Positions 30,364-46,710 of a stretch of 64,000 bases of DNA are shown one piece after another. The position numbers were made by a program, and so were the translations under genes. This stretch comes from an uncultured delta proteobacterium. Its GTDB lineage: Bacteria > Desulfobacterota > Binatia > Binatales > Binataceae. Where the stretch lies: positions 640,001 to 704,000 of the forward strand of contig CAWJET010000001.1 in assembly GCA_963842085.1 (NCBI GenBank), given 5' to 3'. The stretch's first letter is position 1, and each line of letters opens with the position of its first letter. The notes under the pieces are model-generated. The model was not told the origin of the DNA. It did no database searches and worked only from the letters and a program-made list of their open reading frames with translations.

Positions 30364-31439
30364 ATGGCGTCAATCTTCGATATCTCTCGCTCCAGTATCT
30401 TGTAGTCCGCGAGTGTAGGCGCCCCGTGCGCCGCCATTGCGGTCTGTGCCATGCCATTGAACGGCGGCAGGCTCCACCATTCCGTGTGCTGCTCGCGGAT
30501 CATCGGGATGATGTTCTGCGCGTCGGTTACAGTGAATTTTGTAAATCTGTTGTTATGACACCCCGACACTGATCCTATCGCGCCGCAGGAGTATGGAAGA
30601 TCCGCGCCGACATTCCAGTTGTGAAACACTTCCTCGAGCACGGGAAGGCCGGTGCCGTCGCCGCCGATGGACTGGTAGGGCGCCATATGGCAGTCGATGC
30701 ACCGGACAGGACCACCGCCAGGACCGTGCGTCGTCGTATACATTGCCTCAAACGCCGAGTTGTCGGTGTTGTGACGCTGCTCATGGCAGTTGAGGCAGAG
30801 CAGGTCTTCCTTCGAAGTGCCATCGCCGTTCACTCCGGCGTCCAGCGTCTGATATGAGGCAGGATTGTTGACGCCCTTCCAGAGATAGATTGCGGTCGCC
30901 CCGCCGTATAGCGCATTCGGATACAACGCGCCGATCTGCGCGGTGATGTTGTCCGGGGGATGACACGTTGCGCAGGTCACGGCCTGGAATCGCTGCTGCG
31001 GAACAGGGCCAGCATTGGCAACAGCCCCATTGTTGAACCCGGCAGTCGCGGAAGCTTGAAGCGGAGAATGGCACTTTGCGCAAAAGGCGTTCTCGGTCGA
31101 GCCATGATCGGACTGCGAGTGTGCTGAGGCGAGCCATCCGTTGCCGGTCAATTGCCAGGTCTGGGTCGGAACATTCCAGATCACGCCGAATGCGCGCGAA
31201 GTGTGGTCAAGGCCGAGTATAAAATGGCACCCGGCGCACGTCTCGCCCTCGCCATAATCGTAGGTGGGCAGCGACATGTTGGTGGGGAGCGTGGGATAGA
31301 GTATGCCGGGCGCGACCGCCGCGGTCGCGGGCGAGGACGAGGTCGAACTATTGACCGGCGACCGCCCGCGCGCCCACGCCGGCGCAGCGAGAAGGAGTAC
31401 TATCAGGACAACCGAGATCAACGAACGCATACGGCCCAC
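30360..31439 (-). CDS. Multiheme cytochrome c (5 CxxCH + CX8CH), paralog of the neighbour
   Basis: Signal peptide ..APAWA; CAGCH, CAKCH, CATCH, CLNCH, CIDCH and CGAIGSVSGCH. Confidence 0.9.
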   Translation of the reverse strand: MGRMRSLISVVLIVLLLAAPAWARGRSPVNSSTSSSPATAAVAPGILYPTLPTNMSLPTYDYGEGETCAGCHFILGLDHTSRAFGVIWNVPTQTWQLTGNGWLASAHSQSDHGSTENAFCAKCHSPLQASATAGFNNGAVANAGPVPQQRFQAVTCATCHPPDNITAQIGALYPNALYGGATAIYLWKGVNNPASYQTLDAGVNGDGTSKEDLLCLNCHEQRHNTDNSAFEAMYTTTHGPGGGPVRCIDCHMAPYQSIGGDGTGLPVLEEVFHNWNVGADLPYSCGAIGSVSGCHNNRFTKFTVTDAQNIIPMIREQHTEWWSLPPFNGMAQTAMAAHGAPTLADYKILEREISKIDAM

Positions 31440-31553
31440 CCATCCGTGGTCAGGTTCTCTGTATCATGGGTTCTCCTGGAATGGCAAATTGTTTCATTCG
31501 CCGCCGGTTCCAGGGCTCCCTTCATGATCTGCTCCGTCTGCGCCTGCTCGTAC

Positions 31554-31997
31554 TCACGAACCCAGATGCTTCACGTAGTCCACCAAGGCCTTGGTCTGAT
31601 CGGCGGTAAGGTTGGAAAATGCCGGCATTATCGCTGACTCGCCAACTGCTGCCCCTCCGCCTGTTATCGACTTGGCAATCCAGTCATCGCTCTTGCCTTT
31701 CAGCGAGACCGAAAAATCCGAAGGTTTCGGTTTCAAATACTGGCCTGCGGGTCCGTCTCCTTTGCCCTTAGCGCCGTGACACGAAGCGCATTGCTGGCTG
31801 TAGGTGTCGGCCGCTCCTTGTGCGTACAAGGGAGTTACGGCGAACAGCAAGATGGCTGCCATCAGCACCGTAGCCGCGGGGGTTGAAATCTTCGTTCGGT
31901 CGCGCTCTGTTCCAGCGTGCTGGCGCTCGAGATGATTGATGACTTTCGCCGGCCTTGTTATGCGACTGGAACTGACTAACCGCGTATGGTGCTTCAT
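31554..31997 (-). CDS. Monoheme cytochrome c (MtoD-like position)
   Basis: CASCHG.KG.GDGP...GESAIMP; directly after the mtrB-like gene. Confidence 0.9.
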   Translation of the reverse strand: MKHHTRLVSSSRITRPAKVINHLERQHAGTERDRTKISTPAATVLMAAILLFAVTPLYAQGAADTYSQQCASCHGAKGKGDGPAGQYLKPKPSDFSVSLKGKSDDWIAKSITGGGAAVGESAIMPAFSNLTADQTKALVDYVKHLGS

Positions 31998-32024
31998 GGT
32001 CTCTTCGATTCCTCCTGTGTCGGG

Positions 32025-34352
32025 TTAGAACTTGTATTGCAAACTCATATAAGCGGTGTTTCCGGTGAAAGGTGTCCAGTTGGAGTTGCCCAGGAACACC
32101 GACTGAGGCGACGCCGCCATCCAGGGTGTCAACCGGTCGTAGCCGAAGTCATTCTCGCCAAAGTTGCTGAAAAGGTAGCCGATGGTCAGCGCCATGTTCT
32201 TACGGAAAGGATAGCGGTAGGTGACAATCAACTCGTGGAAGCGCGAACCGACGTCCGGGAAACTCGTCGCTGGGCCAAGGGCGGCATCGCCATTTGCGTG
32301 CGTTGCGTCATTCGTAACCGTGTAGTTGTACTGCGCTTGTATGGTCGAGGCGTTCGGTAGCACCTGGTTGGCGGGTATCGTGGCGTTAAAACCAACGTCA
32401 ATTGAATTGCCCTGCTCACGACCGTAGCTAGTCCAAGTCTGACCAGGGCAAGTTGCGGGAGTTTGATGCTCGGGAACGGACGGACACTTTGGCTCACCCA
32501 CGCCGCCCGGCTGGCGCTGGAAGGAGTTGAGATTCCAGTCCGTGGCGGTCCACGACCAGTCAGCATGCAGGTTTAGTCCCGCGAGCGGGGTCCAATTCAT
32601 GCCGACGGAGGGGGTGTAGTCGGACCAGTGCTGCAGACCGAAGTCCGAGGACGGATATGAGTAATCGTCGTAGTCCATCTCGGCATAGAGCGTCAGCGGT
32701 TTGAGCCACGGATTTTCTTCCAGCCAGGGGTTGCCTTCCCCGGCTTGAAAGGGCTGGGCGTCCGAATACAGCGAGAACTGATTGACGTGCACTGAGGCCT
32801 CGTCGAAGCGGGTCAATTGACTGAACTCGGTTAAGCCGCCGTTCTGATTAACCAGACTCGTGCGATTGTTGTTATAGCCGGGAGAGTCACGGTCGGCATA
32901 CTGGTACGAACCCCGCAACTCAAGCCATTCGTAGGGAGTCCAATCCAGCACCGGACCATACGAGGTCGTGTCTTGCTGCAGCACCATCATGCCGCCGTTG
33001 TGATTAGTCTGAATGTTGCCGACCAGACTGGCCACCATCGTCTCGGTTATGTTGTAGCTCGCTTCGCCCTGGATGTTCTGTGTGGAAAAAGCGAAGGGAT
33101 AAGCGGTGGCGCTCCACAGGCTGGCCGTATCATTCAATGAAAATACGTCCTTGAAGGTCACAGCGGGATCATGGTTGTCGTAGTCGAAGTAGCTGTAGGT
33201 GGCCTTTAGCCGCAGGCGGTCCAGCGGCCGGCTGACGACGCTGAAGTTGGCGAAGAATGGCGACACGTCACCGCCCAAGCTCTGCCGGGGAAGCGCTTGG
33301 GAGGGCAAGGCACCGTTGATCGTGAACGGGATGAAGCCCTGGTTCTGAAGCCACCATCCGTAAGAGACGCTGCCCATGAGGTGCGTGTCCATCGGCAGGT
33401 TGAGACCGGCGGTAGCCTCGAAAGTATGAGCCTCGTTGTCGGGGTAGGTGAAGTCGCGGCCGTTGCAGGGCCCAATGCCAGCGGAGCCCCCACCCGAGTA
33501 AATCGGAGAGTCAACGCAAGAACCGCCGGGGCCAGTCATTTCGCCCCAGGTGTTGGGGTTCTGCCAGGTAAGTGTGCTGTACTGGTTCTTGAAGAATGAG
33601 CCCTGATACTGAAGCCCGAGCAGCCAGGTTCCGTTAGCCCACTGCACGCCGACGCCGTAATTGTAAGTGTCGTACTCGATCGGCCGCGAAAGCTCGGTGA
33701 TATTGTACGCACCGGGGTTAGGACCGAACATTTCGCCATACTGGTTGTTGCCGCTTGGGTTCTGGAAATTGAAGTATGCCGAGTAGGTCCACTGGGGCGT
33801 AGGCGTGTAGCGGATGTTCAGGTTGGCGATCCCCTCCAACAGGCTGAGTGACAGCGGCTGGTCAGTCTTGTTTAGCCAGGAGGCGATGTTCGGACCCACG
33901 GTCGGCGTAGGCGCCGCTGGCTTCGAGGGCAGAGTGAAGTTGCCACCATTTTGCTGGTAAGGGCTCTCGGCAATGTCGTCGCTCAGAAAATGCGGAATTT
34001 CCTGCCACTGCGCATCGACATCCAGCAGGCCGTATTCCCCGAAATGGAGGTCGTACAATTCGTTGGTCTGGCCAACGTTGAGGGCGTGGAAGTCCGCGAA
34101 CGTCCGGCCCTCCTTGTCCTGAAGCAGTAACTTCAGCTCGGGCGATATTATCTGCTGCGCGAGGTCCTGATATTCGCGGAACTTGGCGACGTTGGTGGCC
34201 GGTACATTCTGCAGAAAAGCTCCGACCTCGGCCGAGCCCGTTGCGGTGTAATTGCTGCCGACGTTGACCTGGGCGGCGACGAACCGGGGTGTCAGCGTGA
34301 GCACTGTTAGAGCGATGACGAACGGTCGAAATATGAAACGCGGTAAATTCAT
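32025..34352 (-). CDS. MtrB/PioB/MtoB-family outer-membrane beta-barrel
   Basis: 775 aa, signal peptide, AKFREY.DL, PIEYDT, PDNEAH, terminal LQYKF; follows the decaheme gene. Confidence 0.92.
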   Translation of the reverse strand: MNLPRFIFRPFVIALTVLTLTPRFVAAQVNVGSNYTATGSAEVGAFLQNVPATNVAKFREYQDLAQQIISPELKLLLQDKEGRTFADFHALNVGQTNELYDLHFGEYGLLDVDAQWQEIPHFLSDDIAESPYQQNGGNFTLPSKPAAPTPTVGPNIASWLNKTDQPLSLSLLEGIANLNIRYTPTPQWTYSAYFNFQNPSGNNQYGEMFGPNPGAYNITELSRPIEYDTYNYGVGVQWANGTWLLGLQYQGSFFKNQYSTLTWQNPNTWGEMTGPGGSCVDSPIYSGGGSAGIGPCNGRDFTYPDNEAHTFEATAGLNLPMDTHLMGSVSYGWWLQNQGFIPFTINGALPSQALPRQSLGGDVSPFFANFSVVSRPLDRLRLKATYSYFDYDNHDPAVTFKDVFSLNDTASLWSATAYPFAFSTQNIQGEASYNITETMVASLVGNIQTNHNGGMMVLQQDTTSYGPVLDWTPYEWLELRGSYQYADRDSPGYNNNRTSLVNQNGGLTEFSQLTRFDEASVHVNQFSLYSDAQPFQAGEGNPWLEENPWLKPLTLYAEMDYDDYSYPSSDFGLQHWSDYTPSVGMNWTPLAGLNLHADWSWTATDWNLNSFQRQPGGVGEPKCPSVPEHQTPATCPGQTWTSYGREQGNSIDVGFNATIPANQVLPNASTIQAQYNYTVTNDATHANGDAALGPATSFPDVGSRFHELIVTYRYPFRKNMALTIGYLFSNFGENDFGYDRLTPWMAASPQSVFLGNSNWTPFTGNTAYMSLQYKF

Positions 34353-34385
34353 CGACCTGTTCCTCCTCGTAAACCTTGGCTGCGC

Positions 34386-35465
34386 TCACCGAGTCAAGTC
34401 CACGCCACCGGGTGCATTTGATCCGTGAATCGCCGAATGACAATTGGTGCAAGCCTGGCTGAAGACAAATACCGTGCCCCGGCCAGACGGCGTGCCCGGA
34501 TGGAACGTCCCGATGTGGCACTGCTGGCACAACCGGGGCGGTCGCATCTTAAGCATCGAGCGGTTTATCGCACCGTGCGGGTCATGGCAGTTCAGGCAGT
34601 CCTGCACGACCGGTGGATGCATCCATAGGAACGGGCCGCGCTTCTCGGCGTGACAGGTGTAACAGGTCTCATTGACGGTGGCGCGCACCAGTTGATTAGG
34701 ATAAGGGCCGCCGTGTGGGTTGTGACAGTCGGTGCAGGTCATGAGTCCCTCGAACAGCGGCATGTGCGAGGGCAGCGTCATTTGCATCTTCTGCTTCAGG
34801 TGACAGCGCAAGCAGACCTGGGTCTCCGGGCGAGTGATGATGAAAGGATTCGACTCCATCGCCGACGCGAGCTGAAAGCGGGGACTTATCTGGCGCATAA
34901 TGGTGTGGCAGTCGGTGCAGCGTAAGCCGCGAAAGGCGTGAGTGCTTGCGTGCCAAAAGGCCTGCGCTCCGTTGTTGTGGCAATTCAGGCAGGCCGCGTT
35001 TTGCTGATCTGCCGCTTCCCCGGAATCGGCTCGGAAACTGATTACCCCGCCAGTACTAGGGCCGTGCATCACTTCGTCAGGCTTCTCATTTCGCCCCATA
35101 GCTTGAGCCATCGCGCCGACATAGCGACTGCCGGGTCCATGACAGGATTCGCATCCCCGCCCTTGCGCCTCGTCGCGAGGATGCTCGAGCATGATCTTGC
35201 CCATCATGGTCTGGCTAAATTCGTGTGTTACTCCTTGATGGCAGCTTTCACAGACTTTGTCACCCAGGTAAGTCGCAAGCGGCGCGGATTGGGCTGGAGT
35301 TACGGATTGCCCATTCGGCTGCGGTGAAGGCGCGACCGGCGTACTCGATGCGGCCGGCGGGGAGGCAGACGCCGCGGCGGCGGCGCCGCATCGATAACAG
35401 ACGAACACCACCCCGACCAGGACAAGGATAGCGATTCGCGGAAATCGCTTGAGGAAAGCAGTCAT
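34386..35465 (-). CDS. DmsE/MtrA/MtoA-family decaheme cytochrome c
   Basis: 10 CxxCH motifs; CESCHGPG, CYTCHAEKRGPFLW.HPPV, CHSAIHGSN.P.G. Confidence 0.96.
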   Translation of the reverse strand: MTAFLKRFPRIAILVLVGVVFVCYRCGAAAAASASPPAASSTPVAPSPQPNGQSVTPAQSAPLATYLGDKVCESCHQGVTHEFSQTMMGKIMLEHPRDEAQGRGCESCHGPGSRYVGAMAQAMGRNEKPDEVMHGPSTGGVISFRADSGEAADQQNAACLNCHNNGAQAFWHASTHAFRGLRCTDCHTIMRQISPRFQLASAMESNPFIITRPETQVCLRCHLKQKMQMTLPSHMPLFEGLMTCTDCHNPHGGPYPNQLVRATVNETCYTCHAEKRGPFLWMHPPVVQDCLNCHDPHGAINRSMLKMRPPRLCQQCHIGTFHPGTPSGRGTVFVFSQACTNCHSAIHGSNAPGGVDLTR

Positions 35466-35508
35466 GGATGCGTACGGTCCCCGCGGCAAATTATCAGTAT
35501 TCTTGGTC

Positions 35509-36264
35509 CTACCGCAACTCGCCGCCGAGGGTGCGATGACGGCCTTGGTTGGCATCGTAACGTTGGTCGCCGCGCAGGTCCGCCAGCCTGCTAGAGAGCC
35601 ACGACAGCCACTCGTCCATTCCCTGGTTATCGCGTGCCGAAACCAACAGCAGGCGCGGCTGGGGCATCACCCTGGCGAGAGCGTCCTCGAATGATTGCGT
35701 GTGCACGTCTGGCAGATGCGGCAGCAGGTCGGCCTTGGTCAGCACGACCAGGTCGGCGCTGCGGAACATCACCGGGTACTTAAGCGGCTTGTCCTCGCCT
35801 TCAGTCACCGCCAGCGCGACTACATTCACGCGCTGACCCAGGTCGTAGACAGCCGGACAAACAAGATTGCCGACATTTTCGATGAAGAGTACGTCGCGAT
35901 CCTGCCAAGCGATGTCATGCAGGCCTCGATGCACCATCGCCGCGTCGAGATGGCAGGTTGACCCGGTCGTGATAGTGGCGGCCGGGATGCCGGCCGCGCG
36001 TAGGCGCTCGCCATCGTGGTCGGTGGCGAGATCGCCGCTGAGCGCGGCCAGCTTGACGCCGCGCGGAGCGAGAGCGCGCGCCGTCGCTTCGATGAGCGCT
36101 GTCTTACCTGAGCCCGGCGAGCCCATGAGATTTATCGCGAGCACGCCAGCAGAGGCGAAATGCTCGCGGTTGTGACGCGCTGCACTCTCATTCGCCTTGA
36201 GAATCCGCTCATGAAGGTCCACCGTGACGACTCGTTCGTCACCACAGCCGCAGGTCTGGCACAT
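35509..36264 (-). CDS. hypB: Hydrogenase nickel-insertion GTPase HypB
   Basis: MCQTCGC, GSPGSGKT, CHLDA, ENVGNLVCP, EGEDKPLKYP. Confidence 0.97.
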   Translation of the reverse strand: MCQTCGCGDERVVTVDLHERILKANESAARHNREHFASAGVLAINLMGSPGSGKTALIEATARALAPRGVKLAALSGDLATDHDGERLRAAGIPAATITTGSTCHLDAAMVHRGLHDIAWQDRDVLFIENVGNLVCPAVYDLGQRVNVVALAVTEGEDKPLKYPVMFRSADLVVLTKADLLPHLPDVHTQSFEDALARVMPQPRLLLVSARDNQGMDEWLSWLSSRLADLRGDQRYDANQGRHRTLGGELR

Positions 36265-36605
36265 CAGTTCACCTCCATCTCGATTCTGGTCAGCAGGATT
36301 TCATCCCCCTGGGCCAGGCATGCCGCGCCGCCGCACCCTACGCAGCGAAGCGCTCCATGCCGGGGAAGCTCGCAGCCGCACTGGCTGCACTTCCATACCG
36401 CCAGGACCGGCTCGATGGAAAGTGCTGCCTCTGCGCAAACTGTGCGCTCGCGGAAGATCTCATACGCGGTGGCGAGCAGGTCGCGATCGACGCCCGAAAG
36501 CTCGCCGACGCGCACGCAGACCCGGCGCACGGCGGTTGCGCCACGCGAGCGCGCCGTCGTGTCAACCTGCTCTATCAGCGCGCCTATAACCGAATACTCG
36601 TGCAC
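36264..36605 (-). CDS. hypA: Hydrogenase nickel chaperone HypA
   Basis: MHEYS, VGELSGV, CSQC/CVGC. Confidence 0.96.
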   Translation of the reverse strand: MHEYSVIGALIEQVDTTARSRGATAVRRVCVRVGELSGVDRDLLATAYEIFRERTVCAEAALSIEPVLAVWKCSQCGCELPRHGALRCVGCGGAACLAQGDEILLTRIEMEVN

Positions 36606-36617
36606 CTACAATCCCTC

Positions 36618-37481
36618 TCACGCGCCGTTGAATTTCGGCGTCCGCTTCGCAATAAACGCCGCGAGTCCGTCGGCAAAGTCCGGCCCATTGGCGACTCGCG
36701 TCAGGCTCTCGAGTTCGCCATCGAGATGGCGATCGAGCATGTCCATGCCGCACGCCTGGTTGATGAGGGCCTTGGCCTCTGCCCAGGCGCGCGTGGGTCC
36801 CGCGGCCAGGCGCTCAACCAAGGCGAAGGTTTCAGCCTCGAATGTTTCATTGGGATGTACTGCCGTGACCAGCCCGATTTCCAGAGCGCGTCTCGCATCC
36901 AGCCGCGGGCTAAGGAACACGAGTTCCAGCGCACGCCTGAGTCCGAGCAGGCGCGGGAGCAGGAAGGTCGAGCTTTCGGCGCCGGTCAGCCCGGTCCGGC
37001 CGTAAGCCCATTCGAAGCTGGCGCGCTCGGAAGCGATGACCAGGTCGCACGCCATCGCGATTCCGAAACCGCCGGCCGCTGCAATCCCGTCCACCGCCGC
37101 CACGAACGGCTTTGCTGCCCGCCGGATCTCGGAGATGGTGCTGTGGATATACTCGACAATTTCCTTCAGCACTTCGCCGAAGCCCGCGCTTTGAGTTGTC
37201 GCCTCCGGTTTGAGGTAGTCGAGTTCGCGCTCATTCCCACCCGTTCGCACATATTTGAGATCGGCGCCGCTGCAAAATACGCCGCCCGAGCCGCGAATCA
37301 CCACCGCGCGCACTGACTCATCGCGCGCCAGCCGCAAACCCGCGCGCCGCAGATCCTGAGCGGTCGCAACGTCGAGCGAGTTGAAGTGCTCACGACGGTC
37401 GATGGTGATGACGCCCACGCCTGCGCGTGTGTCACACAGAACGTGTGGCGACGGGCGACGAGTTGGCTCTTTGACTTCCAT
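36618..37481 (-). CDS. Enoyl-CoA hydratase/crotonase-fold protein resembling the HypX C-terminal domain
   Basis: FCSGADL, GIAAAGG..IAMACD, AYGRTGLTGAESSTF.LPR; located between hypE and hypA. Confidence 0.85.
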   Translation of the reverse strand: MEVKEPTRRPSPHVLCDTRAGVGVITIDRREHFNSLDVATAQDLRRAGLRLARDESVRAVVIRGSGGVFCSGADLKYVRTGGNERELDYLKPEATTQSAGFGEVLKEIVEYIHSTISEIRRAAKPFVAAVDGIAAAGGFGIAMACDLVIASERASFEWAYGRTGLTGAESSTFLLPRLLGLRRALELVFLSPRLDARRALEIGLVTAVHPNETFEAETFALVERLAAGPTRAWAEAKALINQACGMDMLDRHLDGELESLTRVANGPDFADGLAAFIAKRTPKFNGA

Positions 37482-37489
37482 GGTACTGC

Positions 37490-38521
37490 TCAGCAAATGC
37501 GCGGCAACGGTTCGCCTTCAGGTTCGGAGAGCAAGCGGCGGCCGAAGCCAGTGTCGAGAATCAGGCGCCCGGGCCGCTCTGCCGTGCAGGTCGCGACGAT
37601 CGCGGCGTTGCGGCCGAGCGGATGAGCGCGCAGGGCGTTAAGTACGCGCTCCGCGGATTCCGCGCGCACCCCGATGAGCGCCTTGCCCTCGTTGGCCACC
37701 ATCAGCGGGTCGATCCCAAGCAGCTCAGCCGCGGCGCGCACACCGGCGTTCAGCGGCACGCTTGGGCCGTTGAGCACGATCCCGACGCCGGCCTTTTGCG
37801 CCATTTCGCAAAGCGCGCTGACCACGCCGCCGCGCGTCGGATCCTTCATCGCAACCACGCCGTCGCCACCTGCGTCGAGCGCCTGGCGGACCATCATATT
37901 GAGAGGCGCCACATCCGACCGCAGATCGCCTTCGAGCGCGAGTTCGTGCCGGCACGCCATCACCGCGAGTCCGTGATCGCCGGCGGTTCCGCTGAGAATG
38001 ATCAGGTCGCCCGGCTTTAGGCCGGAATCGGGAACAACGCGGCGCGAGAGCGCGATGCCCGTCGTATTGAGCACGAGCCCGTCGATCTCGCCGCGGCCCA
38101 TGACCTTTGTGTCGCCGGTTAGAATCCGCGCGTCCGCCTCGCGGCAGGCAGCCTCGATTGAGTCGCGGACGCGTTCGAGGTCAGCGCGGGAAAACCCTTC
38201 TTCGACCACCACCGCGCAGGTGAGCGCCAGAACGTCGGTCGCACCCATCATCGCCAAGTCGTTGACAGTACCGGCGACCGCCAGCCGCCCGATATCGCCG
38301 CCGGGGAAAAAGATCGGACTGATCACGTGCGAGTCGGTGGTGATGACCAGCCATTGGTCCCCGAGCGCGATGGCCGCGCCGTCGTCCATTGCTGCCAGAC
38401 CGATTCCCGGCCCCGGCACGCCGTCCAACCGGTCGACGAAGAGTTCCTTGATGAGCGCGCGCATCGCGCGTCCACCGGCTCCATGCTTGAGCCCGATTCT
38501 GCTGTCTTCTTCGTCGACCAT
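37490..38521 (-). CDS. hypE: HypE carbamoyl dehydratase
   Basis: HGAGG, TTDSH, GTVNDL, TGDTKV, KDPTRGG, terminal PRIC. Confidence 0.97.
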   Translation of the reverse strand: MVDEEDSRIGLKHGAGGRAMRALIKELFVDRLDGVPGPGIGLAAMDDGAAIALGDQWLVITTDSHVISPIFFPGGDIGRLAVAGTVNDLAMMGATDVLALTCAVVVEEGFSRADLERVRDSIEAACREADARILTGDTKVMGRGEIDGLVLNTTGIALSRRVVPDSGLKPGDLIILSGTAGDHGLAVMACRHELALEGDLRSDVAPLNMMVRQALDAGGDGVVAMKDPTRGGVVSALCEMAQKAGVGIVLNGPSVPLNAGVRAAAELLGIDPLMVANEGKALIGVRAESAERVLNALRAHPLGRNAAIVATCTAERPGRLILDTGFGRRLLSEPEGEPLPRIC

Positions 38522-38531
38522 GGCGTCAGTT

Positions 38532-39665
38532 TCAACTACCCAAATCGGGCCTGCCTCCGTACTCCAGCCAGATGCGGCAAGTCCCTTCACTGCTCACCAT
38601 GCATGCGCCCACCGGATGGTCCGGCAAGCATTTGGTGCCGAAGAGCGGGCAGGCGCTCGGCGTTGCGATACCGGCCATGATGTCGCCGCATATGCACTGC
38701 GCGGCAAGCCGGGGCGGTGCGTACGACCACAGGCCGGTGAGGTCGATCTTGAAGCGCCGGCGTGCGTCGACCTGCGCCCATTCGTCGCGCAAGCGCAGGT
38801 TGCCGTTGGGCACGTGCGCAATTCCGCGCCATCGACCGCCGATCGACCGAAACACCCGCCACAACGCCTCCTGAGCATTGCGGTTTCCCTCGCGCGTGAC
38901 GCACCGCGGATAGGCGTTGACCACGGCCGCACGGCGATCACGAATCAGCTCGAGCAGGCGTGCGAGTCCGGCCAGAATATCGAGCGGTTCGAAGCCGGCC
39001 ACTACGACGGGTATATGATGATGCTCGACGAAACGCTCGAAGACTCCCCATCCAGTGATGGCGGCTGCGTGGCCCGCCGCAAGAAACCCTTCGACCCGTG
39101 TCGCAGGCATTTCGGCGACTATCTCCATCACCGGCGGGATGTACTTGTGAGCGGAGAGAACCGAGAAGTTGGATGGCGTGCCGGCCAGCAGGGCCGCCGC
39201 GGTGGCGACGGCTGTGGTCTCGAAGCCGCTGGCGAAGAACACCAGCTCTTCATCAATGCGGCGCGCCAGTTCCACCGCCTGCGACACGCTGTAGACGACG
39301 TCCACGCGCGCGCCATCCGCCCTCGCGTCTGCCAGCGACTTGACGCTTCCGGGCACGCGCAGCATGTCGCCGTAGGTCGCAATTCTCACTCCTGCAAGCG
39401 CAAGCGCGACCGCCTCGTCAACCTCGGGCAGATCGGTCACGCATACCGGACAGCCCGGTCCCATGATCACGTCGAGCGCGCGGGGCAAGCTGGCCCGCAA
39501 GCCGAAGCGCGCGATTGCCTGCTCGTGGCTTCCGCACACGTGCATCACTGAGATTGGCGCGCGGCCGATAGATTCGCACAGCCGGCCGAGCAGCGCGGTG
39601 AGCTCGCGTCCGCGCCGGGGATCGCGGAACTCGAGCACGCGGCCGTTCATCTGGCTGTCATCCAT
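38532..39665 (-). CDS. hypD: HypD
   Basis: HVCGSH, GPGCPVC, GFETT, PVGACMVSSEGTC. Confidence 0.97.
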   Translation of the reverse strand: MDDSQMNGRVLEFRDPRRGRELTALLGRLCESIGRAPISVMHVCGSHEQAIARFGLRASLPRALDVIMGPGCPVCVTDLPEVDEAVALALAGVRIATYGDMLRVPGSVKSLADARADGARVDVVYSVSQAVELARRIDEELVFFASGFETTAVATAAALLAGTPSNFSVLSAHKYIPPVMEIVAEMPATRVEGFLAAGHAAAITGWGVFERFVEHHHIPVVVAGFEPLDILAGLARLLELIRDRRAAVVNAYPRCVTREGNRNAQEALWRVFRSIGGRWRGIAHVPNGNLRLRDEWAQVDARRRFKIDLTGLWSYAPPRLAAQCICGDIMAGIATPSACPLFGTKCLPDHPVGACMVSSEGTCRIWLEYGGRPDLGS

Positions 39666-39948
39666 CTTTTTTTCTCTCGCCAGCCGCAATTTCGCCGCGC
39701 ACGTCGGCCGCCATCAAATCCTCGCGCTCGGCTTCGCGCAGCAATTCCTCGTAAAGGGCAAGGGTGGCTTCGACCTCCGCGGCGGGAATCTTGCGGATCG
39801 CGTAACCGACATGATTGAGCACGTAGTCGCCGGGACCGACCGGCTCGTCAACGATGTCGAGCAGGACCTCCTTGCGCACGCCCCAGAAATCGACGGTCGC
39901 GACGGAACCTGAAACTCCGACCACTCTGCCCGGTACACCGAGGCACAT
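39658..39948 (-). CDS. hypC: HypC/HupF chaperone
   Basis: MCLGVPG...GDYVLNHVGYA. Confidence 0.96.
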   Translation of the reverse strand: MCLGVPGRVVGVSGSVATVDFWGVRKEVLLDIVDEPVGPGDYVLNHVGYAIRKIPAAEVEATLALYEELLREAEREDLMAADVRGEIAAGERKKDG

Positions 39949-42320
39949 CAGAGGCGGCCTCCCTTCGATTCGCGCACGCGTGCCGCGGCGACCATCGCTT
40001 GCCCGAGTGCGATACCGCCGTCTCCGGCCGGGACCTCGCGCGGCAAAAAAACCTGGGTAACGCCGGCCAGGGCGTCGAAGATTCCTTGCGCGAGCCGCGG
40101 ATTCTGAAAGCATCCGCCGCTCAGCACGACCGGGACTTGTCCGTGCTCTGCGAGCGCCGAGCGCACCGTCGCTGCTGTTCCTTCAATCAATGTGTTGTGA
40201 AAGCGCGCCGCGATCCGGCGGCGATCGGCGCCCGCGATAACTTCATGGACAATCCTGCGAACCATCGGCCGCAGATCCAGGCTCCACGGCTGCTGATTGC
40301 GATGGAGGGAAAATTCATAGACCCCGGTTTCACGGGGATCGGCGAGATTGTTGAGCATCATAGCGACCTGCCCTTCGTAGGCGGCATGCTGCTGCGCGAA
40401 GACCAGCGCACCAATCGCGTCGAAGTAGCGGCCGATGCCGTGCGCGCTTGCTGTATTCAGTCCGCTTGCGATCATGCGCCTTACGGTCGTCGCGGCGCCT
40501 GCATCGATCCGCGAGAAAAGCCCGAGCCGCTCGAATTCGTTAAACGACCCGCCGAAGGCATCCTCGATCAGCGCGAGCGCTAGCCGCCAGACCTCGCGCA
40601 CCGCGCGATCGCCGCCCGCCAGCGCGACCGGCCGAATCGTCGCAATCCGCTCGAAGCCGGCGAAATCCGCGAGCATCAACTCGCCGCCCCACATCGCGCC
40701 ATCGCTCCCGAGCCCCGACCCATCGAATGCGACCCCGAGAACCGGACCCGCAAGGCCGTGTTCCGCCATCGCACTCGCAACATGCGCATGATGATGCTGC
40801 ACCGCGACGGTAACGCACCCCTTGCGCCCCACCGCATAACGGGTCGAGAGATAATCAGGATGCAGGTCGTGCGCGATTATCTCGGGCTTCACGCCGACGA
40901 AGCCTTCCATCCTTGCGATCGACTCCTCAAAAGCCTCGTAGGTCTCGAGACCGTCGAGATCGCCGATGTGCGGACCGAACCAGATCGAATCCCCGCTGCC
41001 CAGGCAGAACGCATTTTTGAGTTGCGCTCCGACGGCCAGGACCGGTCGCTCGAATGGCGGATCGATTGGCACAGGACGTGGCACATAACCTCGCGAGCGG
41101 CGCAGCACGGTTGGAGCGCCTGCGATCATGCGCGCAACCGAGTCGTCGCATCGGGTCACGATTTCACGGTCGTGGATCAGAAAGAGGTCAGCAATCCCTC
41201 CCAGCCGAAGGAGCGCCTCATCGTTGCGATAGGCGATAGGTTCATCCGACCGGTTTCCCGACGTCATCACCAGCGGTCTCTGCGCTGCCGCCAGAAGCAG
41301 GTGATGCAACGGCGTGTACGCGAGCATGACGCCGACGAGCGGGGTTTCCGGCGCGACCTCGGCAGCGAGACCCGCATCCGGATGCCGGTGGGCGAGAACG
41401 ATCGGCCGCTCGGGCGAGGACAACAGTGCTCGCTCCGTGGGACCAAGAACGGCGAGGCGCTCGGCGTCTTCGAGCTCACGCACCATGACGGCGAACGGCT
41501 TTTCATCGCGATGTTTGCGGATGCGCAGCCGTGCGACCGCGGCCGCCGATGTGGCGTCGCAGGCGAGGTGAAACCCGCCAAGACCCTTGAGCGCGACGAT
41601 ACGCCCTTCGCGCACTGCGAGGGCCGCGTCGCCAATCGGGTGGCTCGATGCCAACTCGTCGCCCGCCGCTGCGAGCAGCCGCAGACTCGGGCCGCACTCG
41701 CGACAAGCGTTTGACTCCGCGTGAAAACGTCGATTACCGGGATCTCGGTACTCGCGCAGGCACTCGGCGCACATCTCGAACGCCGCCATCGTTGTCGCGC
41801 CGCGGTCGTAAGGGACATCACACGCGATCGTGAAGCGCGGGCCGCAGTTCGTGCAGTTGGTGAAGGCGTAACCGAAGCGGCGATCTCCGCGATCGAAGAT
41901 CTCGGCGACACATTCGCGACAGGTTGCCATGTCGGCGGGTATCGATACGCAGCGCTCCGCGCGCTGCTCGCTCGCGGCGATCTCGAAATGAGGCCGCTGC
42001 TCGAACTCCAGCAGGTTTGCCTGCACAGTCTTGAGTCGTGCCCGCGCAGGCGCCTCGGTAATCAGGCGACTGACAAAGCGGTCCAGCACTACGCGCGAAC
42101 CGAAGGCTTCTATAATGACGCCCGCCGCGTCGTTACGAACGCTGCCGGTCAGCCCCTCTTCACGCGCCAGCCGGTAGACGAAAGGCCGGAAGCCGACGCC
42201 CTGCGAAATTCCCGTCACTTTGATCTTGCGGCCCGCGAGTCCTGACACATCCATATCAGGGTCGACTGCATGGGACGGTGAGAAGCAGACGTCCGCGAGC
42301 TGTGGCTCCTCACCGTTCAT
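39948..42320 (-). CDS. hypF: HypF carbamoyltransferase
   Basis: QGVGFRP acylphosphatase, zinc fingers (CTNCGPR), KGLGGFHL, TSGN, QHHHAH, GDGGIALGQ. Confidence 0.97.
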   Translation of the reverse strand: MNGEEPQLADVCFSPSHAVDPDMDVSGLAGRKIKVTGISQGVGFRPFVYRLAREEGLTGSVRNDAAGVIIEAFGSRVVLDRFVSRLITEAPARARLKTVQANLLEFEQRPHFEIAASEQRAERCVSIPADMATCRECVAEIFDRGDRRFGYAFTNCTNCGPRFTIACDVPYDRGATTMAAFEMCAECLREYRDPGNRRFHAESNACRECGPSLRLLAAAGDELASSHPIGDAALAVREGRIVALKGLGGFHLACDATSAAAVARLRIRKHRDEKPFAVMVRELEDAERLAVLGPTERALLSSPERPIVLAHRHPDAGLAAEVAPETPLVGVMLAYTPLHHLLLAAAQRPLVMTSGNRSDEPIAYRNDEALLRLGGIADLFLIHDREIVTRCDDSVARMIAGAPTVLRRSRGYVPRPVPIDPPFERPVLAVGAQLKNAFCLGSGDSIWFGPHIGDLDGLETYEAFEESIARMEGFVGVKPEIIAHDLHPDYLSTRYAVGRKGCVTVAVQHHHAHVASAMAEHGLAGPVLGVAFDGSGLGSDGAMWGGELMLADFAGFERIATIRPVALAGGDRAVREVWRLALALIEDAFGGSFNEFERLGLFSRIDAGAATTVRRMIASGLNTASAHGIGRYFDAIGALVFAQQHAAYEGQVAMMLNNLADPRETGVYEFSLHRNQQPWSLDLRPMVRRIVHEVIAGADRRRIAARFHNTLIEGTAATVRSALAEHGQVPVVLSGGCFQNPRLAQGIFDALAGVTQVFLPREVPAGDGGIALGQAMVAAARVRESKGGRL

Positions 42321-42724
42321 GTCTCACCCAGCGTGTGGATGTACGCGACCAGGTCCCAGATCTGGCGGTCGGTGAGCGTCGACCACGACGGCATCGCGGC
42401 CCCCTGGACGCCGTCATGAATCGCCCGATAAGTCTGCCACGCGTTCGCCGAATCGGACCATGGCGGGACTGTGAGATTGCCCGGCGGCGGCTCCATTCCC
42501 ATGCTGCGGACGCCGTGCCCGTCGCCTCTCTCGCCGTGGCAAATTACGCAATTCTGCATGAAGAGCGCGCGTCCTCTTTCTCTCGCCTCGCGCGACGCAA
42601 AGAGCCCGGATGGAGCCTGCGCTGCGCCGGGCGGTCTACCGCTCCTGCTGCACCCGATTATCGCGCACAACATCCCCAGCGCAGCTGTCGCGACCCTCCG
42701 CGCCACTCTTCGGCGACAGTTCAT
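42317..42724 (-). CDS. Monoheme cytochrome c, probable lipoprotein
   Basis: IIGC lipobox-like; CVICHGERGDG.G...G.AMPSW. Confidence 0.85.
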   Translation of the reverse strand: MNCRRRVARRVATAALGMLCAIIGCSRSGRPPGAAQAPSGLFASREARERGRALFMQNCVICHGERGDGHGVRSMGMEPPPGNLTVPPWSDSANAWQTYRAIHDGVQGAAMPSWSTLTDRQIWDLVAYIHTLGET

Positions 42725-43187
42725 ATCCAAGACCTCGAGCCTCACGCACTATCGCCTCGACCAGCCCCTCCAATCCCGCGTCGACAGGATCGGAACGCTC
42801 AATACTCAAATCCATTGTTTCCGGCACCAGTCCCAGCAAGGTGACCGAGGTTGGAAAAGAGTCGATGAGTCGCGCGGCGTCGAAAAGATCTGCAACCCCA
42901 ACCTGGTGAGGGGACAGGCGCTCGCGGACTGCGGGTGGCACCTCGTCTCCGTCGATTCGGACCAGTGTTCCCGGCGGAGCATCGACGCGAACCGCATCTA
43001 CCAGAATCACGTGTTCCGACTCGGCAAACAGCCCAAGCAGTGCGAGCCCAAGCGTGCCGCCATCTGCAACCCGAACCCGTGGCGGAATATTGTAATTGCG
43101 TTCGAGCCGAGCCACTGCGGCGGCGCCGAGTCCGTCGTCGCGAAGCAGTATATTGCCAAGCCCGAGAACCAATAATTCGTCAGGCAT
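42636..43187 (-). CDS. hyaD: Hydrogenase maturation endopeptidase (HyaD/HybD family)
   Basis: LGLGNILLRDDGLG, DGGTLG, LVDAV, SPHQVG. Confidence 0.95.
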   Translation of the reverse strand: MPDELLVLGLGNILLRDDGLGAAAVARLERNYNIPPRVRVADGGTLGLALLGLFAESEHVILVDAVRVDAPPGTLVRIDGDEVPPAVRERLSPHQVGVADLFDAARLIDSFPTSVTLLGLVPETMDLSIERSDPVDAGLEGLVEAIVREARGLGYELSPKSGAEGRDSCAGDVVRDNRVQQER

Positions 43188-43896
43188 CGCGTTTCCTCTC
43201 CGCGACGCCTTCCGGGCCTACGCGCTTGTACCCCGAAAATATCGAATCGATGATCCCGCTGCGCTCCGTCATAGAAAAAAGAGTCGCCGAGTACACGTGA
43301 TGAATCATGAAGATCAGGAGCAACCACATCCCGACATGATGGACCAGGCGCACCATCTGAAGTCCGCCGAAAATCGGGATCAGGAACCCGAAGAACTGAA
43401 AAGGCGAGTTCACTCCGGCATAGACGGTATAGAGAGCGAGACCGGTGCCGATCATTGTGAAGTAGATCAAGAAGATAACTGCGTAGGTTGCACCGGCCAT
43501 CCCGCTGTGGCCGGCGTACGGCTCCGGGTCGCGGCGCACAAAGCCATAAAAGCGCATCGACTGCCAGATGCTGCTAAAGCGTTCGCGCGTGACCGGAATG
43601 AACTGGTGCCAACGCGCATAGTAATTGCCGGCGAACATCCAGTAGACACGCACAAATACCGACAAACTGAAGACGACGGCCGCATACAGGTGGATCAGGC
43701 GCATGGTGCCCATAACGAAGTGATCGCGGGCGGGCCCACTGACTGCGATAAACGGATGACCTATATAGAAGCCCGTAACCGCAAGCACTGCGATCGAAAG
43801 AACGATCAGCCAGTGCGTGATGCGCACCGGCAGTTCCCAGGCATAGACAAGGCCGGAGCCGGGCGGCTCCGGCACAGGCCGCGGCAGTGCGCTCAC
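43180..43896 (-). CDS. hyaC: Ni/Fe-hydrogenase b-type cytochrome subunit
   Basis: YAWELPVRITHW, RLIH, RLVHH, IHHVY, SIFSGYK; GTG start overlaps the large-subunit stop. Confidence 0.95.
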   Translation of the reverse strand: MSALPRPVPEPPGSGLVYAWELPVRITHWLIVLSIAVLAVTGFYIGHPFIAVSGPARDHFVMGTMRLIHLYAAVVFSLSVFVRVYWMFAGNYYARWHQFIPVTRERFSSIWQSMRFYGFVRRDPEPYAGHSGMAGATYAVIFLIYFTMIGTGLALYTVYAGVNSPFQFFGFLIPIFGGLQMVRLVHHVGMWLLLIFMIHHVYSATLFSMTERSGIIDSIFSGYKRVGPEGVAERKRDA

Positions 43897-45602
43897 AGGA
43901 CCTTGACGCGGGCCAACTCGCGCCTCCTGGCGTCCACCACGTGAACGCCGCACGCCATGCACGGATCGAATGAGTGCACCGTGCGGAGTATTTCGAGTGG
44001 TTGATCCGGCTTCGCCACCGGAGTGCCGACGAGCGACGCCTCGTAAGGACCCGGCTGGTTCGCATGGTCCCGCGGGCCGGCATTCCAGGTGCTCGGCACG
44101 ACACACTGGTAGTTCACGATCTGGCCGTTGCTGATGTGAACCCAGTGGCCGAGAGACCCGCGCGGCGCTTCGTGAAAGCCGGCGCCGTAACAGTCGGCGG
44201 GCCAGCTCTCCGGCTCCCATTTCGAGTTGTCCTGGATACGGTAGTCACGGCGCGCCATGTTCTCGCCCAGGGCGGTTACCCAGTCGCCCATCTTTTCCAC
44301 CACGACCTGAGTCTCAATGGCGCGCGCCGCCACTCGCCCCAAGGTCGAGAACAGCGCTTGCGGTCCAACGCCGAGCGCCGCCAGGGCTTTGTCAACCAGT
44401 TGCTTGACCTGCGCCGGCCGGCCCGACACGTACGCGACCAGCATGCGCGCGAGCGGCCCAACCTCCATCGGCGCACCCTCATAGCGCGGTGATTTGAGCC
44501 AACTGTACTTCTCCGCCAGCACCAGTCGTTCGTACGGCGGCTTGGGTCCGGTGTAATGCGGGTCGGTTTCCCCCTTGTACGGATGTAGCGCTTCGCTGTC
44601 GCCGCCTGAATATTCGTACCAGGAATGTGCGACCTGCTCCGTGATCTTTCCCTGGTCAACCGGCTCGACCTTTGAAATATCGCGCCCCCGGATTATCCCG
44701 GATGGCATCCATAGCTCAGGATTTTCGCTGTCGTCCTCGGGATAATCGCCATACACCATGTAGTTGCCGACGCCCGCGCCGATCGAAGCCCAATCCTTAT
44801 AGAATGATGCGACTGCCAGGACGTCGGGCAAATAGACACGCTTGACGAAGTCGCGGCCTTCGGCGATGAGCTTGTCGAGCGCCGAGATCGTGTCGGCGTT
44901 GAGCGCGGCTTGCGAGTCGGGATCAACCGGCGTCGCCATGCCACCGACCAGGAAACTTTGCAGGTGCGGATTTTTTCCGCCCAGGATCGCATGGATCTTG
45001 ATGAAGCGCCGCTGCCAGTCGAGCGCCTCCAGATAATGCGCAACCGCCATCAGATTCGCCTCGGGCGGCAGGCGGTACGCCGGATGACCCCAGTAGGCGT
45101 TAGCGAAGGGCCCAAGCTGGCCGCGCTGAACGAACGTACTGATCCGGTCGCGTACTCCCGAAAAATACTTTGCACTCGACAGCGACCAGTCTGAGATCGA
45201 CTGGGCAAGCGTGGCGGTCTTGGCCGGATCGGCCTTGAGCGCCGAGGTGATATCGACCCAGTCGAGTGCATGCAGATGGTAGAAATGGATCACGTGGTCG
45301 TGGACGCACTGCGCCGCGATGATGAGGTTGCGCAGCAGCCGCGCGTTGGGCGGCGGTTGCGCGCCGATTGCGTGCTCGACGGCGCGAATCGAGGCGATCG
45401 CGTGAACTGTGGTGCAAACTCCGCAGATGCGTTGGGTGAAGACCCATGCGTCACGCGGATCTCGCCCCTTGAGAATGATCTCGATGCCGCGAAACATCGT
45501 CGACGACGACCAGGCCTCATTCACCTTGCCGCCATCGACTTCGGCTTCTATTCGGAGATGCCCTTCGATGCGCGTTATCGGATCAACGACGACGTGGGTC
45601 AT
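43893..45602 (-). CDS. hyaB: Group 1 [NiFe]-hydrogenase large subunit
   Basis: DPITRIEGH, L1 QRICGVCTTVH, L2 SFDPCMACGVH followed by a cleavable tail. Confidence 0.98.
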   Translation of the reverse strand: MTHVVVDPITRIEGHLRIEAEVDGGKVNEAWSSSTMFRGIEIILKGRDPRDAWVFTQRICGVCTTVHAIASIRAVEHAIGAQPPPNARLLRNLIIAAQCVHDHVIHFYHLHALDWVDITSALKADPAKTATLAQSISDWSLSSAKYFSGVRDRISTFVQRGQLGPFANAYWGHPAYRLPPEANLMAVAHYLEALDWQRRFIKIHAILGGKNPHLQSFLVGGMATPVDPDSQAALNADTISALDKLIAEGRDFVKRVYLPDVLAVASFYKDWASIGAGVGNYMVYGDYPEDDSENPELWMPSGIIRGRDISKVEPVDQGKITEQVAHSWYEYSGGDSEALHPYKGETDPHYTGPKPPYERLVLAEKYSWLKSPRYEGAPMEVGPLARMLVAYVSGRPAQVKQLVDKALAALGVGPQALFSTLGRVAARAIETQVVVEKMGDWVTALGENMARRDYRIQDNSKWEPESWPADCYGAGFHEAPRGSLGHWVHISNGQIVNYQCVVPSTWNAGPRDHANQPGPYEASLVGTPVAKPDQPLEILRTVHSFDPCMACGVHVVDARRRELARVKVL

Positions 45603-46710
45603 GCTCGGGGCCCTCTGAACTGCTCTTGGAACCGGCCGGCTCGGTTCCCGTGTGATGCCGCACGATCTGGCCGACACCATGGGCGACCGACGCCGCGCCC
45701 ACAATTCCCGCCGCGGCCAAGCCAATCCGATCGAGGTTGGCGTTCACGTTGAATCCAGGAACATTGGGCAAGCGCCGATAGAAAGGCGTCATGGTGTCCC
45801 AGAAATTCGGCTCCGCACAGCCGACACACGGATGGCCGCAGCCGATCGGCCAGTTCGTGCCCTCATTCCATCGCACTTCCGGACAGTTTTGCGAGGTCGC
45901 GGGCCCTTTGCATCCCATCTTGTACAGGCAGGCGCCGTTCCGATGGGCTTCGTCGCCCCAAGCCTCGACGTACTGTCCGGCATCGAAGTGTGCGCGCCGT
46001 TCGCAGTTGTCGTGGATGAGTTTTCCGTAGGCGAAAAGCGGACGCCGGTACCGATCCAGTGGCGGCCACTGCTTCATGGTCATGTAGTAAACAATTAGCG
46101 CCGTTATGTTCTCGGCGTTCATCGGGCATGCTGACATATTGATCAGGTTGTTGACGCCCGGCACCGCATCGCCGACCGAGACCGCGCCGGTCGGGTTGGG
46201 GCGCGCCGCCGGTATCCCGCCGAAGGTCGCGCAGGTGCCGACCGCGATCGTTGCCGCAGCCTTGCCGCACACTTCGCGCGCGATCTGCAAAGCGCTGCGA
46301 CCGCCGATGGTGCAATAGGCTCCGTCGGCACCTGTGGGAATCGCTCCTTCAACCAGGGCTATGTACTTTCCCGCGAAGTCGCGAACCGTGCTGTCAAGCG
46401 CGCTCTCAGCTTGAAAGCCGGCTGCAGCCATCAGGGTTTCGTGGTAGTTCAGCGAAATCGAATCCAGGATGAGGTCACCGACGGTCGGGTGACTCGCGCG
46501 CAAAAACGACTCCGTGTTACCGGCACAGTCCTGAAACTCGAGCCAGACGAGAACGGGCTTCGGCGCCATCTCGATATTTGCGGCAATCATGCTGGCCGCC
46601 GTCTCCGGCATCGCCAGCAGCGTCGCCATCGAGGCACAGAATTTCAGGAAATCGCGGCGTGACACGCCGCGGTACGCGAGCTCTTTACCCAGCCAGCTAT
46701 TGGACGCCAT
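45583..46710 (-). CDS. hyaA: Group 1 [NiFe]-hydrogenase small subunit (Tat signal, C-terminal TM anchor)
   Basis: SRRDFLK, DCAGNTES, GTCA.FGG, ACP, HDNC..R, CLYKMGCKGP, GHPCVGC. Confidence 0.98.
   Translation of the reverse strand: MASNSWLGKELAYRGVSRRDFLKFCASMATLLAMPETAASMIAANIEMAPKPVLVWLEFQDCAGNTESFLRASHPTVGDLILDSISLNYHETLMAAAGFQAESALDSTVRDFAGKYIALVEGAIPTGADGAYCTIGGRSALQIAREVCGKAAATIAVGTCATFGGIPAARPNPTGAVSVGDAVPGVNNLINMSACPMNAENITALIVYYMTMKQWPPLDRYRRPLFAYGKLIHDNCERRAHFDAGQYVEAWGDEAHRNGACLYKMGCKGPATSQNCPEVRWNEGTNWPIGCGHPCVGCAEPNFWDTMTPFYRRLPNVPGFNVNANLDRIGLAAAGIVGAASVAHGVGQIVRHHTGTEPAGSKSSSEGPEHDPRRR

Follow-up and report, generated by a model that had tools for sequence, protein, structure and literature searches.

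We analysed a window of 64,000 nucleotides (positions 640,001 to 704,000 of contig CAWJET010000001.1, called C1 below, from an uncultured delta proteobacterium of the Binataceae) with respect to a single crotonase-fold gene that lies among the hyp genes for [NiFe]-hydrogenase maturation. The first-pass annotation had placed this gene between hypE and hypA in a hypFCDE-x-AB arrangement and had read it as half of HypX, supplying the carbon monoxide (CO) ligand of the hydrogenase from formyl-coenzyme A (formyl-CoA). The placement is borne out by the ECH_1 match of the gene and by the family scores of its Hyp neighbors, with the correction that the gene is encoded on the minus strand. The operon lies below the genes of a membrane-bound [NiFe]-hydrogenase, and its order along the minus strand is hydrogenase small subunit, large subunit, b-type cytochrome, HyaD-type protease, small c-type cytochrome, hypF, hypC, hypD, hypE, crotonase, hypA and hypB. 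The maturation part of the operon comprises the following genes.

39948..42320, minus strand: hypF (TIGR00143, 746.4 bits, above cut-off)
39658..39948, minus strand: hypC, 96 amino acids (aa), beginning MCLG, its start overlapping the hypF stop (TIGR00074, 72.8 bits, above cut-off)
38532..39665, minus strand: hypD, predicted docking partner of the crotonase (TIGR00075, 383.9 bits, above cut-off)
37490..38590, minus strand: hypE, given as the limits of the open reading frame (ORF), the family match beginning at residue 31 so that the true start is perhaps later (TIGR02124, 365.2 bits, cut-off 251.6)
36618..37481, minus strand: crotonase of the hyp-linked FEWAY...LTGAE family, 287 aa (ECH_1; Tyr/Glu alignment with HypX; synteny in 42/42 loci)
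36264..36605, minus strand: hypA with a GTG start (TIGR00100, 79.4 bits, just below the cut-off of 88.1)
35509..36264, minus strand: hypB, its start overlapping the end of hypA (TIGR00073, 252.6 bits, above cut-off)

The crotonase gene is separated by 8 nucleotides from the hypE stop and by 12 nucleotides from the GTG start of hypA. A TTG start at 37496 would give a longer ORF (36618..37496, minus strand, 292 aa); starting from the ATG at 37481, the protein has 287 aa, the same length as its closest homologues. Residues are numbered here on the 287-aa protein unless stated otherwise; its Tyr160 and Glu169 correspond to Tyr165 and Glu174 when counted from the TTG. ECH_1 is the sole Pfam domain match of the protein (E 5.6e-46, 157 bits), and its AlphaFold model has a predicted local distance difference test (pLDDT) value of 88.

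The crotonase belongs to a tight, unnamed, stand-alone family of about 285 aa, with the loop FEWAY-x3-[GAS]-L-[TS]-G-A-E and with its gene beside hypE. Close relatives are numerous in the protein database: the best 120 clusters listed, which stem from Candidatus Binataceae, Acidobacteriota and Vicinamibacteria, are 67-94% identical to the window protein and are either nameless or automatically named PaaG. A scan across genomes that represent single species provided 42 loci with 59-93% identity, onto which the Hyp proteins of the window were mapped by tblastn; the metagenome-assembled genomes concerned are labeled Binataceae, Acidobacteriota, Myxococcota, Gemmatimonadaceae and Spirochaetota. 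The gene directly upstream of the crotonase is hypE in 41 of the 42 loci and hypD in the remaining one (L032, where hypE lies downstream), while hypA and hypB follow directly downstream in 31/42, and a further locus (L047) has hypB only. A chance arrangement is not an issue, since the layout recurs in 42/42 related loci.

The same linkage was seen in 201 evenly drawn genomes of the class to which the window belongs. Eleven of them carry the crotonase gene and 49 have a hypE match above cut-off; all 11 carriers are among these 49, with crotonase-hypE distances of 5-56 nucleotides, and the gene occurs in none of the 152 class genomes without such a hypE match. Canonical HypX was found once in the class sample, as a contig-end fragment. 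In a phylum-wide sample the crotonase gene was present in 2/301 genomes. The sequencing runs listed as matches were eight DNA runs of soil metagenomes from two studies, two of these runs being possible sources of the window DNA, and no RNA run was among them. Based on these figures, the family is patchy in the lineage and tied to hyp genes in every case examined, and the hyp linkage of orthologues that the earlier reading presupposed therefore holds in 42/42 loci and in 11/11 class carriers. No credible fused form of the crotonase was found, a blank that is weak evidence in itself; four longer matches (509-614 aa) were rejected as fusions, as they are Arg/Ala-rich wrong-frame stretches that look like mis-called or frame-shifted ORFs. 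Literature searches brought up no description of a HypX-like system in stand-alone or two-gene form, the lists of HypX homologues in supplementary files lying outside their coverage.

The active site of the family differs from that of the enoyl-CoA hydratases at both catalytic positions. The crotonase reads AAAGGFGIAM where the canonical paralogues show GGG-x-E, and FEWAYGRTGLTGAESSTFLLPRL where they show P-E, so that Gly and Tyr occupy the two hydratase glutamate columns; both glutamates are replaced in the family as well as in HypX. The crotonase thus lacks the two catalytic glutamates of an enoyl-CoA hydratase proper. The loss of both glutamates and the two motifs quoted by the first-pass annotation (AAAGGFGIAM and the Tyr/Glu loop) were confirmed, and the C-domain motif that it had given for HypX agrees with the actual C. 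necator HypX sequence. The oxyanion-hole segments FCSGADL and AAAGG are conserved in the family.

BLASTP aligns the crotonase to C. necator HypX with 31% identity over 172 aa (E 9e-13) and puts Tyr165 on Tyr439 and Glu174 on Glu449 (numbering from the TTG). Mutants of these two HypX residues are HypX-minus, and the residues have been proposed to act in formyl-CoA decarbonylation, according to PMC6802093. We compared 39 family sequences (the window and 38 loci), 12 HypX proteins (six from plasmid records of five phyla or classes and six betaproteobacterial database proteins, with Aquifex HypX left out) and the crotonase paralogues of the window genome. In one MAFFT alignment the Tyr+Glu pair is present in 39/39 family sequences, in 12/12 HypX and in 0/37 paralogues. 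Among 112 representatives of the nearest crotonases outside the family, taken from a profile search of 1.84 billion proteins, the two residues occur together in a single one. The pair, combined with the flank G-L-x-G-[AS]-E-x-x-T-[FY]-x-L-P, is common to the family and HypX only. As judged from these alignments, what the family and HypX share specifically is the shifted acid, Glu, together with its surrounding loop, and Glu is the distinctive residue. Two distant relatives were also noted: P0255 (278 aa, 37.5% identity) keeps both Tyr and Glu, and P0251 (315 aa, 44.5%) keeps Tyr and has Ala for Glu. For the gene context of P0255, one metagenome scan gave only loci of 24-30% identity.

A 65-row set contained 14 of the 39 family members, the 12 HypX, 37 paralogues, P. 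denitrificans PaaG and an Agrobacterium hydratase; its careful mixture-model tree separates the 14 family members and 12 HypX from the 39 other rows at 100/100 (93 in the quick search), and the long branch of HypX joins the tree within the family. The same split obtained 97 in a 32-row LG+G4 tree (eight family, six HypX, 16 paralogues, mostly with the longest branches dropped, and two named proteins) and 96 after removal of the motif columns. When 20 nearest representatives were included in a 44-row tree, eight family members, six HypX, P0255 and P0251 were separated from 28 others at 98. HypX C-domains and the family group together in four of the five trees, which are unrooted and contain no Aquifex HypX; the fifth, discussed below, lost the grouping. 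A profile built from the 12 HypX C-domains gave a family median of 70.6 bits, compared with a maximum of 61.3 and a median of 27.6 for the paralogues; with the motif masked, the corresponding values were 36.5, 33.1 and 13.6. In neither case did any paralogue score above the family median. Profiles made from five other paralogue groups served as a control and placed the family low, with 21-32 of 33-35 paralogues scoring above it. The kinship between the family and the HypX C-domain thus appears real but deep, and a large part of its signal comes from the active-site loop.

HypX/HoxX is a CO-ligand synthase that depends on N10-formyl-tetrahydrofolate, and its Aquifex aeolicus structure is described in PMC6802093. 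The likeness to HypX/HoxX extends to gene position, as the HypX genes of C. necator, R. leguminosarum and Sulfurovum occupy the same slot after hypE. Both proteins have the crotonase fold and have lost both hydratase glutamates, and the Tyr/Glu pair aligns within a shared Y-x3-G-(x)-L-x-G-[AS]-E-x-x-T-[FY]-x-L-P loop. In contrast, HypX is about 550-640 aa long, whereas the crotonase has 287 aa and no formyltransferase domain; it carries a 17-residue insertion and a family-specific helix, and HypX has neither. As had been claimed earlier, no formyltransferase domain is encoded in the window: tblastn with a hyp-linked formyltransferase gave a best E of 0.26, and of the five Formyl_trans_N matches in the genome (in frames of 227-333 aa) none lies in C1:640001-704000.

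In 18 of the 42 loci, however, a Formyl_trans_N gene of 230-280 aa is located between hypE and the crotonase, and its product probably makes formyl-CoA from N10-formyl-tetrahydrofolate (formyl-THF). Two copies tested matched Pfam Formyl_trans_N with E 4.6e-24 and 2e-19. Among NCBIfam models the gene comes closest to PurN, with 80.6 bits, which is below the cut-off. This partner keeps the PurN-type motifs N-x-H-x-S-D and LDxGP and has a 9-residue insertion of its own, in contrast to the N-domains of HypX, which read VHPGIxGDRGPS. The two-gene module has the domain content of HypX but, with these PurN-type motifs, is no fission product of it. No orthologue of the partner was found in the window genome, where the best scores (31-35 bits) fell on housekeeping PurN-like and PurU-like frames, and five of five other formyltransferase-less carrier genomes tested gave matches of 28-47 bits only; by comparison, true orthologues score 182-233 bits in tblastn (15 intact copies), and the frame-split copies in L040 and L045 score 80-114 bits per piece. 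The earlier description of the gene as a "split or minimal HypX" therefore stands in its second half, as the genome lacks a partner formyltransferase, and falls in its first, as the partner of its relatives is of PurN type and not a HypX N-domain. On a quick tree of the 39 family members, from which the frame-broken or cut copies in L040, L045, L047 and L048 were left out, presence of the formyltransferase changes at least seven times, and the 12-row clade of the window is entirely without it. Two plasmid loci with a HypX region behind hypE were noted in passing, one in Sulfurovum mangrovi (L056:3001-4618, where the tblastn match falls in three pieces) and one in Mesorhizobium huakuii (H45). 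The annotation divides this region into a formyltransferase gene and hypothetical or hydratase genes, and the two loci contain either damaged copies of HypX or true HypX that is naturally split.

We know of no solved structure of HypX with HypD. A single complex prediction was made for HypD, HypC and the crotonase, each supplied as an alignment of operon-mates, and it suggests that the crotonase docks on HypD. Its score was 0.77, and the best of three controls scored 0.00; 58 of 80 solved complexes attain this mark, as do 2 of 110 mismatched pairs, counts that are only rough here because our own alignments and three chains were used. The runs share at least 83% of contacts, the partner pLDDT is at least 89, and the predicted contacts are with HypD only. 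They involve HypD residues 78, 80, 177-188, 203-216, 260-294 and 313, and crotonase residues 45-55, 85-93, 106-118 and 248-262. The predicted interface includes the 17-residue insertion and the helix KxILEYIHSTISEIRR, both absent from HypX and from other crotonases, and 15 of its 30 residues are identical in at least 37 of the 39 family members. Compared with the HypD proteins of C. necator and Sulfurovum, HypD of crotonase-linked operons has CGSHEQ for CGGHTH and AGHAA for PxHVS, replacements that are invariant in 21/21 aligned operon-mates. The window HypD is 39% identical to that of C. necator overall and matches it at 10/35 interface positions. For HypX itself, the gel-filtration data in PMC6802093 describe a 1:1:1 complex with HypC and HypD, which parallels the predicted position of the crotonase on HypD.

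Taken together, these results favor, with moderate confidence, the view that the crotonase docks on HypD and decarbonylates formyl-CoA, thereby supplying the [NiFe]-hydrogenase with its CO ligand. For the substrate, the release of CO and its hand-over to the iron, we infer the following course. The crotonase would bind formyl-CoA in the conserved oxyanion hole formed by the AAGG and FCSGAD segments, and Tyr160 and Glu169, aligned with Tyr439 and Glu449 of HypX, would promote decarbonylation to CO and CoA-SH. Because the crotonase is proposed to dock on HypD, CO would be freed beside HypCD, the scaffold for the assembly of Fe(CN)2CO. The window genome has no dedicated formyltransferase, and tblastn with the 12 HypX proteins found no HypX in it; this would leave general metabolism or a housekeeping enzyme to supply formyl-CoA. 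The genome also contains five heme-copper oxidase matches, one of them about 3 kb past the window end, and an oxygen-compatible CO route would be useful to an organism that can respire oxygen and is without HypX.

A number of results weigh against this assignment, beginning with the overall similarity of the protein. By sequence it is PaaG-like (best PDB matches 4lk5, 6sl9 and 3hrx, about 1e-33, with HypX not among the top matches), and Foldseek gave template-modeling (TM) scores of 0.80-0.82 to 4lk5 and 3p5m, with no HypX entry in the 50 ranks listed. When the 12 HypX proteins were compared with the genome by tblastn, the hyp-linked crotonase was listed for only two of them, and other paralogues usually scored higher. 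The earlier HypX-half interpretation is thus supported in part, by the hyp linkage, the Tyr/Glu pair and four of the five trees, but not by overall sequence and fold, which are those of an ordinary crotonase. One could even regard the protein as a fatty-acid or phenylacetate-pathway crotonase that is merely located in the operon, in agreement with its automatic JGI name (PaaG isomerase) and its best NCBIfam and PDB matches. We consider this very improbable and close to refuted. All NCBIfam matches reach only about half of their cut-offs (oxepin_alt, the best, 167.8 versus 300; PaaG, TIGR02280, 154.9 versus 345.15), a paa gene context is absent, and hyp linkage holds across several phyla in all 42 loci and 11 carriers. 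In addition, PaaG-like crotonases (4lk5, 6sl9, 3hrx, 4fzw) are the best overall relatives at about 33-38% identity and TM 0.80 to 4lk5, but the catalytic Asp of their P-D motif is Ala in the crotonase, with Glu one position later, and they fall on the opposite side of the family-HypX split in the 65-row and 44-row trees.

Further reservations concern the signal shared with HypX. Tyr is present in 83 of the 112 nearest non-family crotonases and Asp one column before Glu in 104 of them, so that Tyr is inherited from a PaaG-like neighborhood. The Tyr/Glu correspondence asserted at first reading thus holds as an alignment on Tyr439 and Glu449, but Tyr is not specific to HypX. The first active-site strand reads SNGIHL in HypX versus the canonical FCSGADL in the family. 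Removal of 31 motif columns dissolved the family-HypX split in the 65-row quick mixture tree; the grouping of the crotonase with HypX-C over PaaG and others, which the first-pass annotation had proposed to look for, was recovered in the other four trees and lost in this one. On the 112 nearest crotonases, the HypX-C profile scored 28 above the family minimum and one above the family median.

The weak point of the decarbonylase interpretation is substrate supply. Neither formyl-CoA transferase (Frc; best 415.6 versus a cut-off of 504.2 bits) nor Oxc (best 247.5 versus 739.4 bits) was found above cut-off in the genome, both being possible sources in the earlier proposal of supply by a CoA-transferase or an oxalyl-CoA decarboxylase. 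HypX holds CoA as a swinging prosthetic group between its two fused domains, according to PMC6802093, and this mechanism is ruled out for the crotonase because it is a lone domain. As a separate observation, the best Frc-like gene, at C1:107452-108639, is one of about 40 family-III CoA-transferase paralogues and has two crotonase paralogues about 11 kb away (C1:119093-120911).

Given these difficulties, the protein might instead be a hyp-dedicated acyl-CoA enzyme with another chemistry or substrate, which might decarboxylate, hydrolyse or lyse another small acyl-CoA (oxalyl-, glyoxylyl- or acetyl-CoA), so feeding the carbonyl or a different step on HypCD, and would resemble HypX in the active-site loop only; we regard this as unlikely, yet as the most serious of the alternatives. 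A dedicated formyl donor enzyme is missing from 24/42 loci, from the window genome and from the five other formyltransferase-less genomes tested, and formyl-CoA is therefore not obviously available there. The formyltransferase is also dispensable, given at least seven changes in its presence across the family tree. In the closest relatives, which are PaaG-like, the acid stands one residue away, and other crotonase-fold enzymes carry their catalytic Asp or Tyr in the loop that contains Glu here. On the other hand, the combination of the Tyr+Glu pair with its conserved flank is found in HypX only, and the partner, where present, is a formyltransferase, which points to a formyl group. A decarboxylase like the methylmalonyl-CoA decarboxylase ScpB/YgfG of E. 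coli was considered in this context, as it has the crotonase fold, a Tyr in the same loop region and a non-hydration C-C or C-S chemistry. However, ScpB Tyr140 aligns with Gly167 of the crotonase and ScpB His66 with Ala73, so the catalytic residues of ScpB are not shared, Tyr140 falling on neither Tyr160 nor Glu169, and this candidate was rejected.

The predicted docking can likewise be turned against catalysis. The catalytic loop is absent from the listed contacts, and mean conservation is 0.77 at the interface versus 0.76 over the whole protein, so the interface is not enriched. An interface on HypD that avoids the catalytic loop would suit a non-catalytic or CoA-sensing adaptor, which would bind CoA or acyl-CoA and stabilize or protect HypCD, for example against oxygen, without making CO; the altered HypD signature motifs of this lineage perhaps call for such a helper. 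We consider an adaptor improbable, and less probable than an enzyme of other chemistry. In 39/39 members the glycines of the oxyanion hole and the Tyr/Glu pair are kept unchanged, as expected for catalysis, and the recurrent formyltransferase neighbor would be left unexplained.

If the decarbonylase interpretation is retained, a broader and clearly more tentative hypothesis can be considered. The lone crotonase may be a self-sufficient, perhaps ancestral, HypD-docked CO-ligand synthase that decarbonylates a metabolic acyl-CoA without formyl-THF, the formyltransferase being an optional addition that was repeatedly gained or lost, and classical HypX a later fusion of a family member to a formyltransferase. 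We hold this possible rather than likely, and an origin of HypX from this family stays a hypothesis because the root of the tree was not inferred. If true, the carbonyl of the hydrogenase would have a second enzymatic route of synthesis, one independent of formyl-THF. In its treatment of this ligand, a 2025 review (PMC12134894) presents HypX as the only known CO-making enzyme and leaves the CO source open in organisms without HypX. The family would provide a small, separately encoded candidate for this role in widespread soil phyla (Binatia, Acidobacteriota, Myxococcota and Gemmatimonadota). The absence of the formyltransferase partner in more than half of the carriers raises two questions, namely whether the decarbonylase half alone is sufficient and where formyl-CoA originates. 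The predicted docking on HypD offers a concrete model of how free CO could be kept from escaping, and the crotonase could serve as a compact part for the expression of oxygen-tolerant hydrogenases in other hosts.

The remaining genes of the hydrogenase operon lie upstream of hypF, and an extracellular electron conduit resembling MtrAB/PioAB (29134-35555, minus strand) lies directly downstream of hypB.

45583..46710 (ORF to 46767), minus strand: [NiFe]-hydrogenase small subunit with a twin-arginine (Tat) signal (TIGR00391, 412.1 bits; alignment with C. necator HoxK)
43893..45608 (ORF to 45725), minus strand: [NiFe]-hydrogenase large subunit (best solved relative 3myr_B, 719 bits, then 4c3o_A)
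43180..43860 (ORF to 44220), minus strand: hydrogenase b-type cytochrome subunit (TIGR02125, 170.2 bits)
42636..43187, minus strand: HyaD/HybD-type hydrogenase maturation protease (TIGR00072, 132.2 bits)
34386-35555, minus strand: multihaem cytochrome (Paired_CXXCH)
32025-34352, minus strand: MtrB/PioB outer-membrane porin (259 bits)
30360-31439 and 29134-30363, minus strand: two further multihaem cytochromes

Several features of this neighborhood deserve mention. The small subunit reads DCAGNTES (at about 46510-46530) where C. necator HoxK reads ECTCCSES, with Asn replacing the second Cys of the CxxC of the proximal cluster; L041 and L042 also have Asn at this position, and L043 has Asp. This replacement could indicate an unusual ligation of the proximal Fe-S cluster. 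The small c-type cytochrome between the maturation protease and hypF (42317-42745, minus strand) is weakly similar to the C-terminal haem domain of CcoP (39 bits). Upstream of the hydrogenase operon and divergent from it, a gene on the plus strand (47406-48155) encodes a Crp/Fnr-type regulator with cNMP_binding and HTH_Crp_2 domains, which may be an oxygen or redox regulator of the hydrogenase cluster. Finally, the porin-cytochrome module adjoining the hydrogenase is an unusual pairing.

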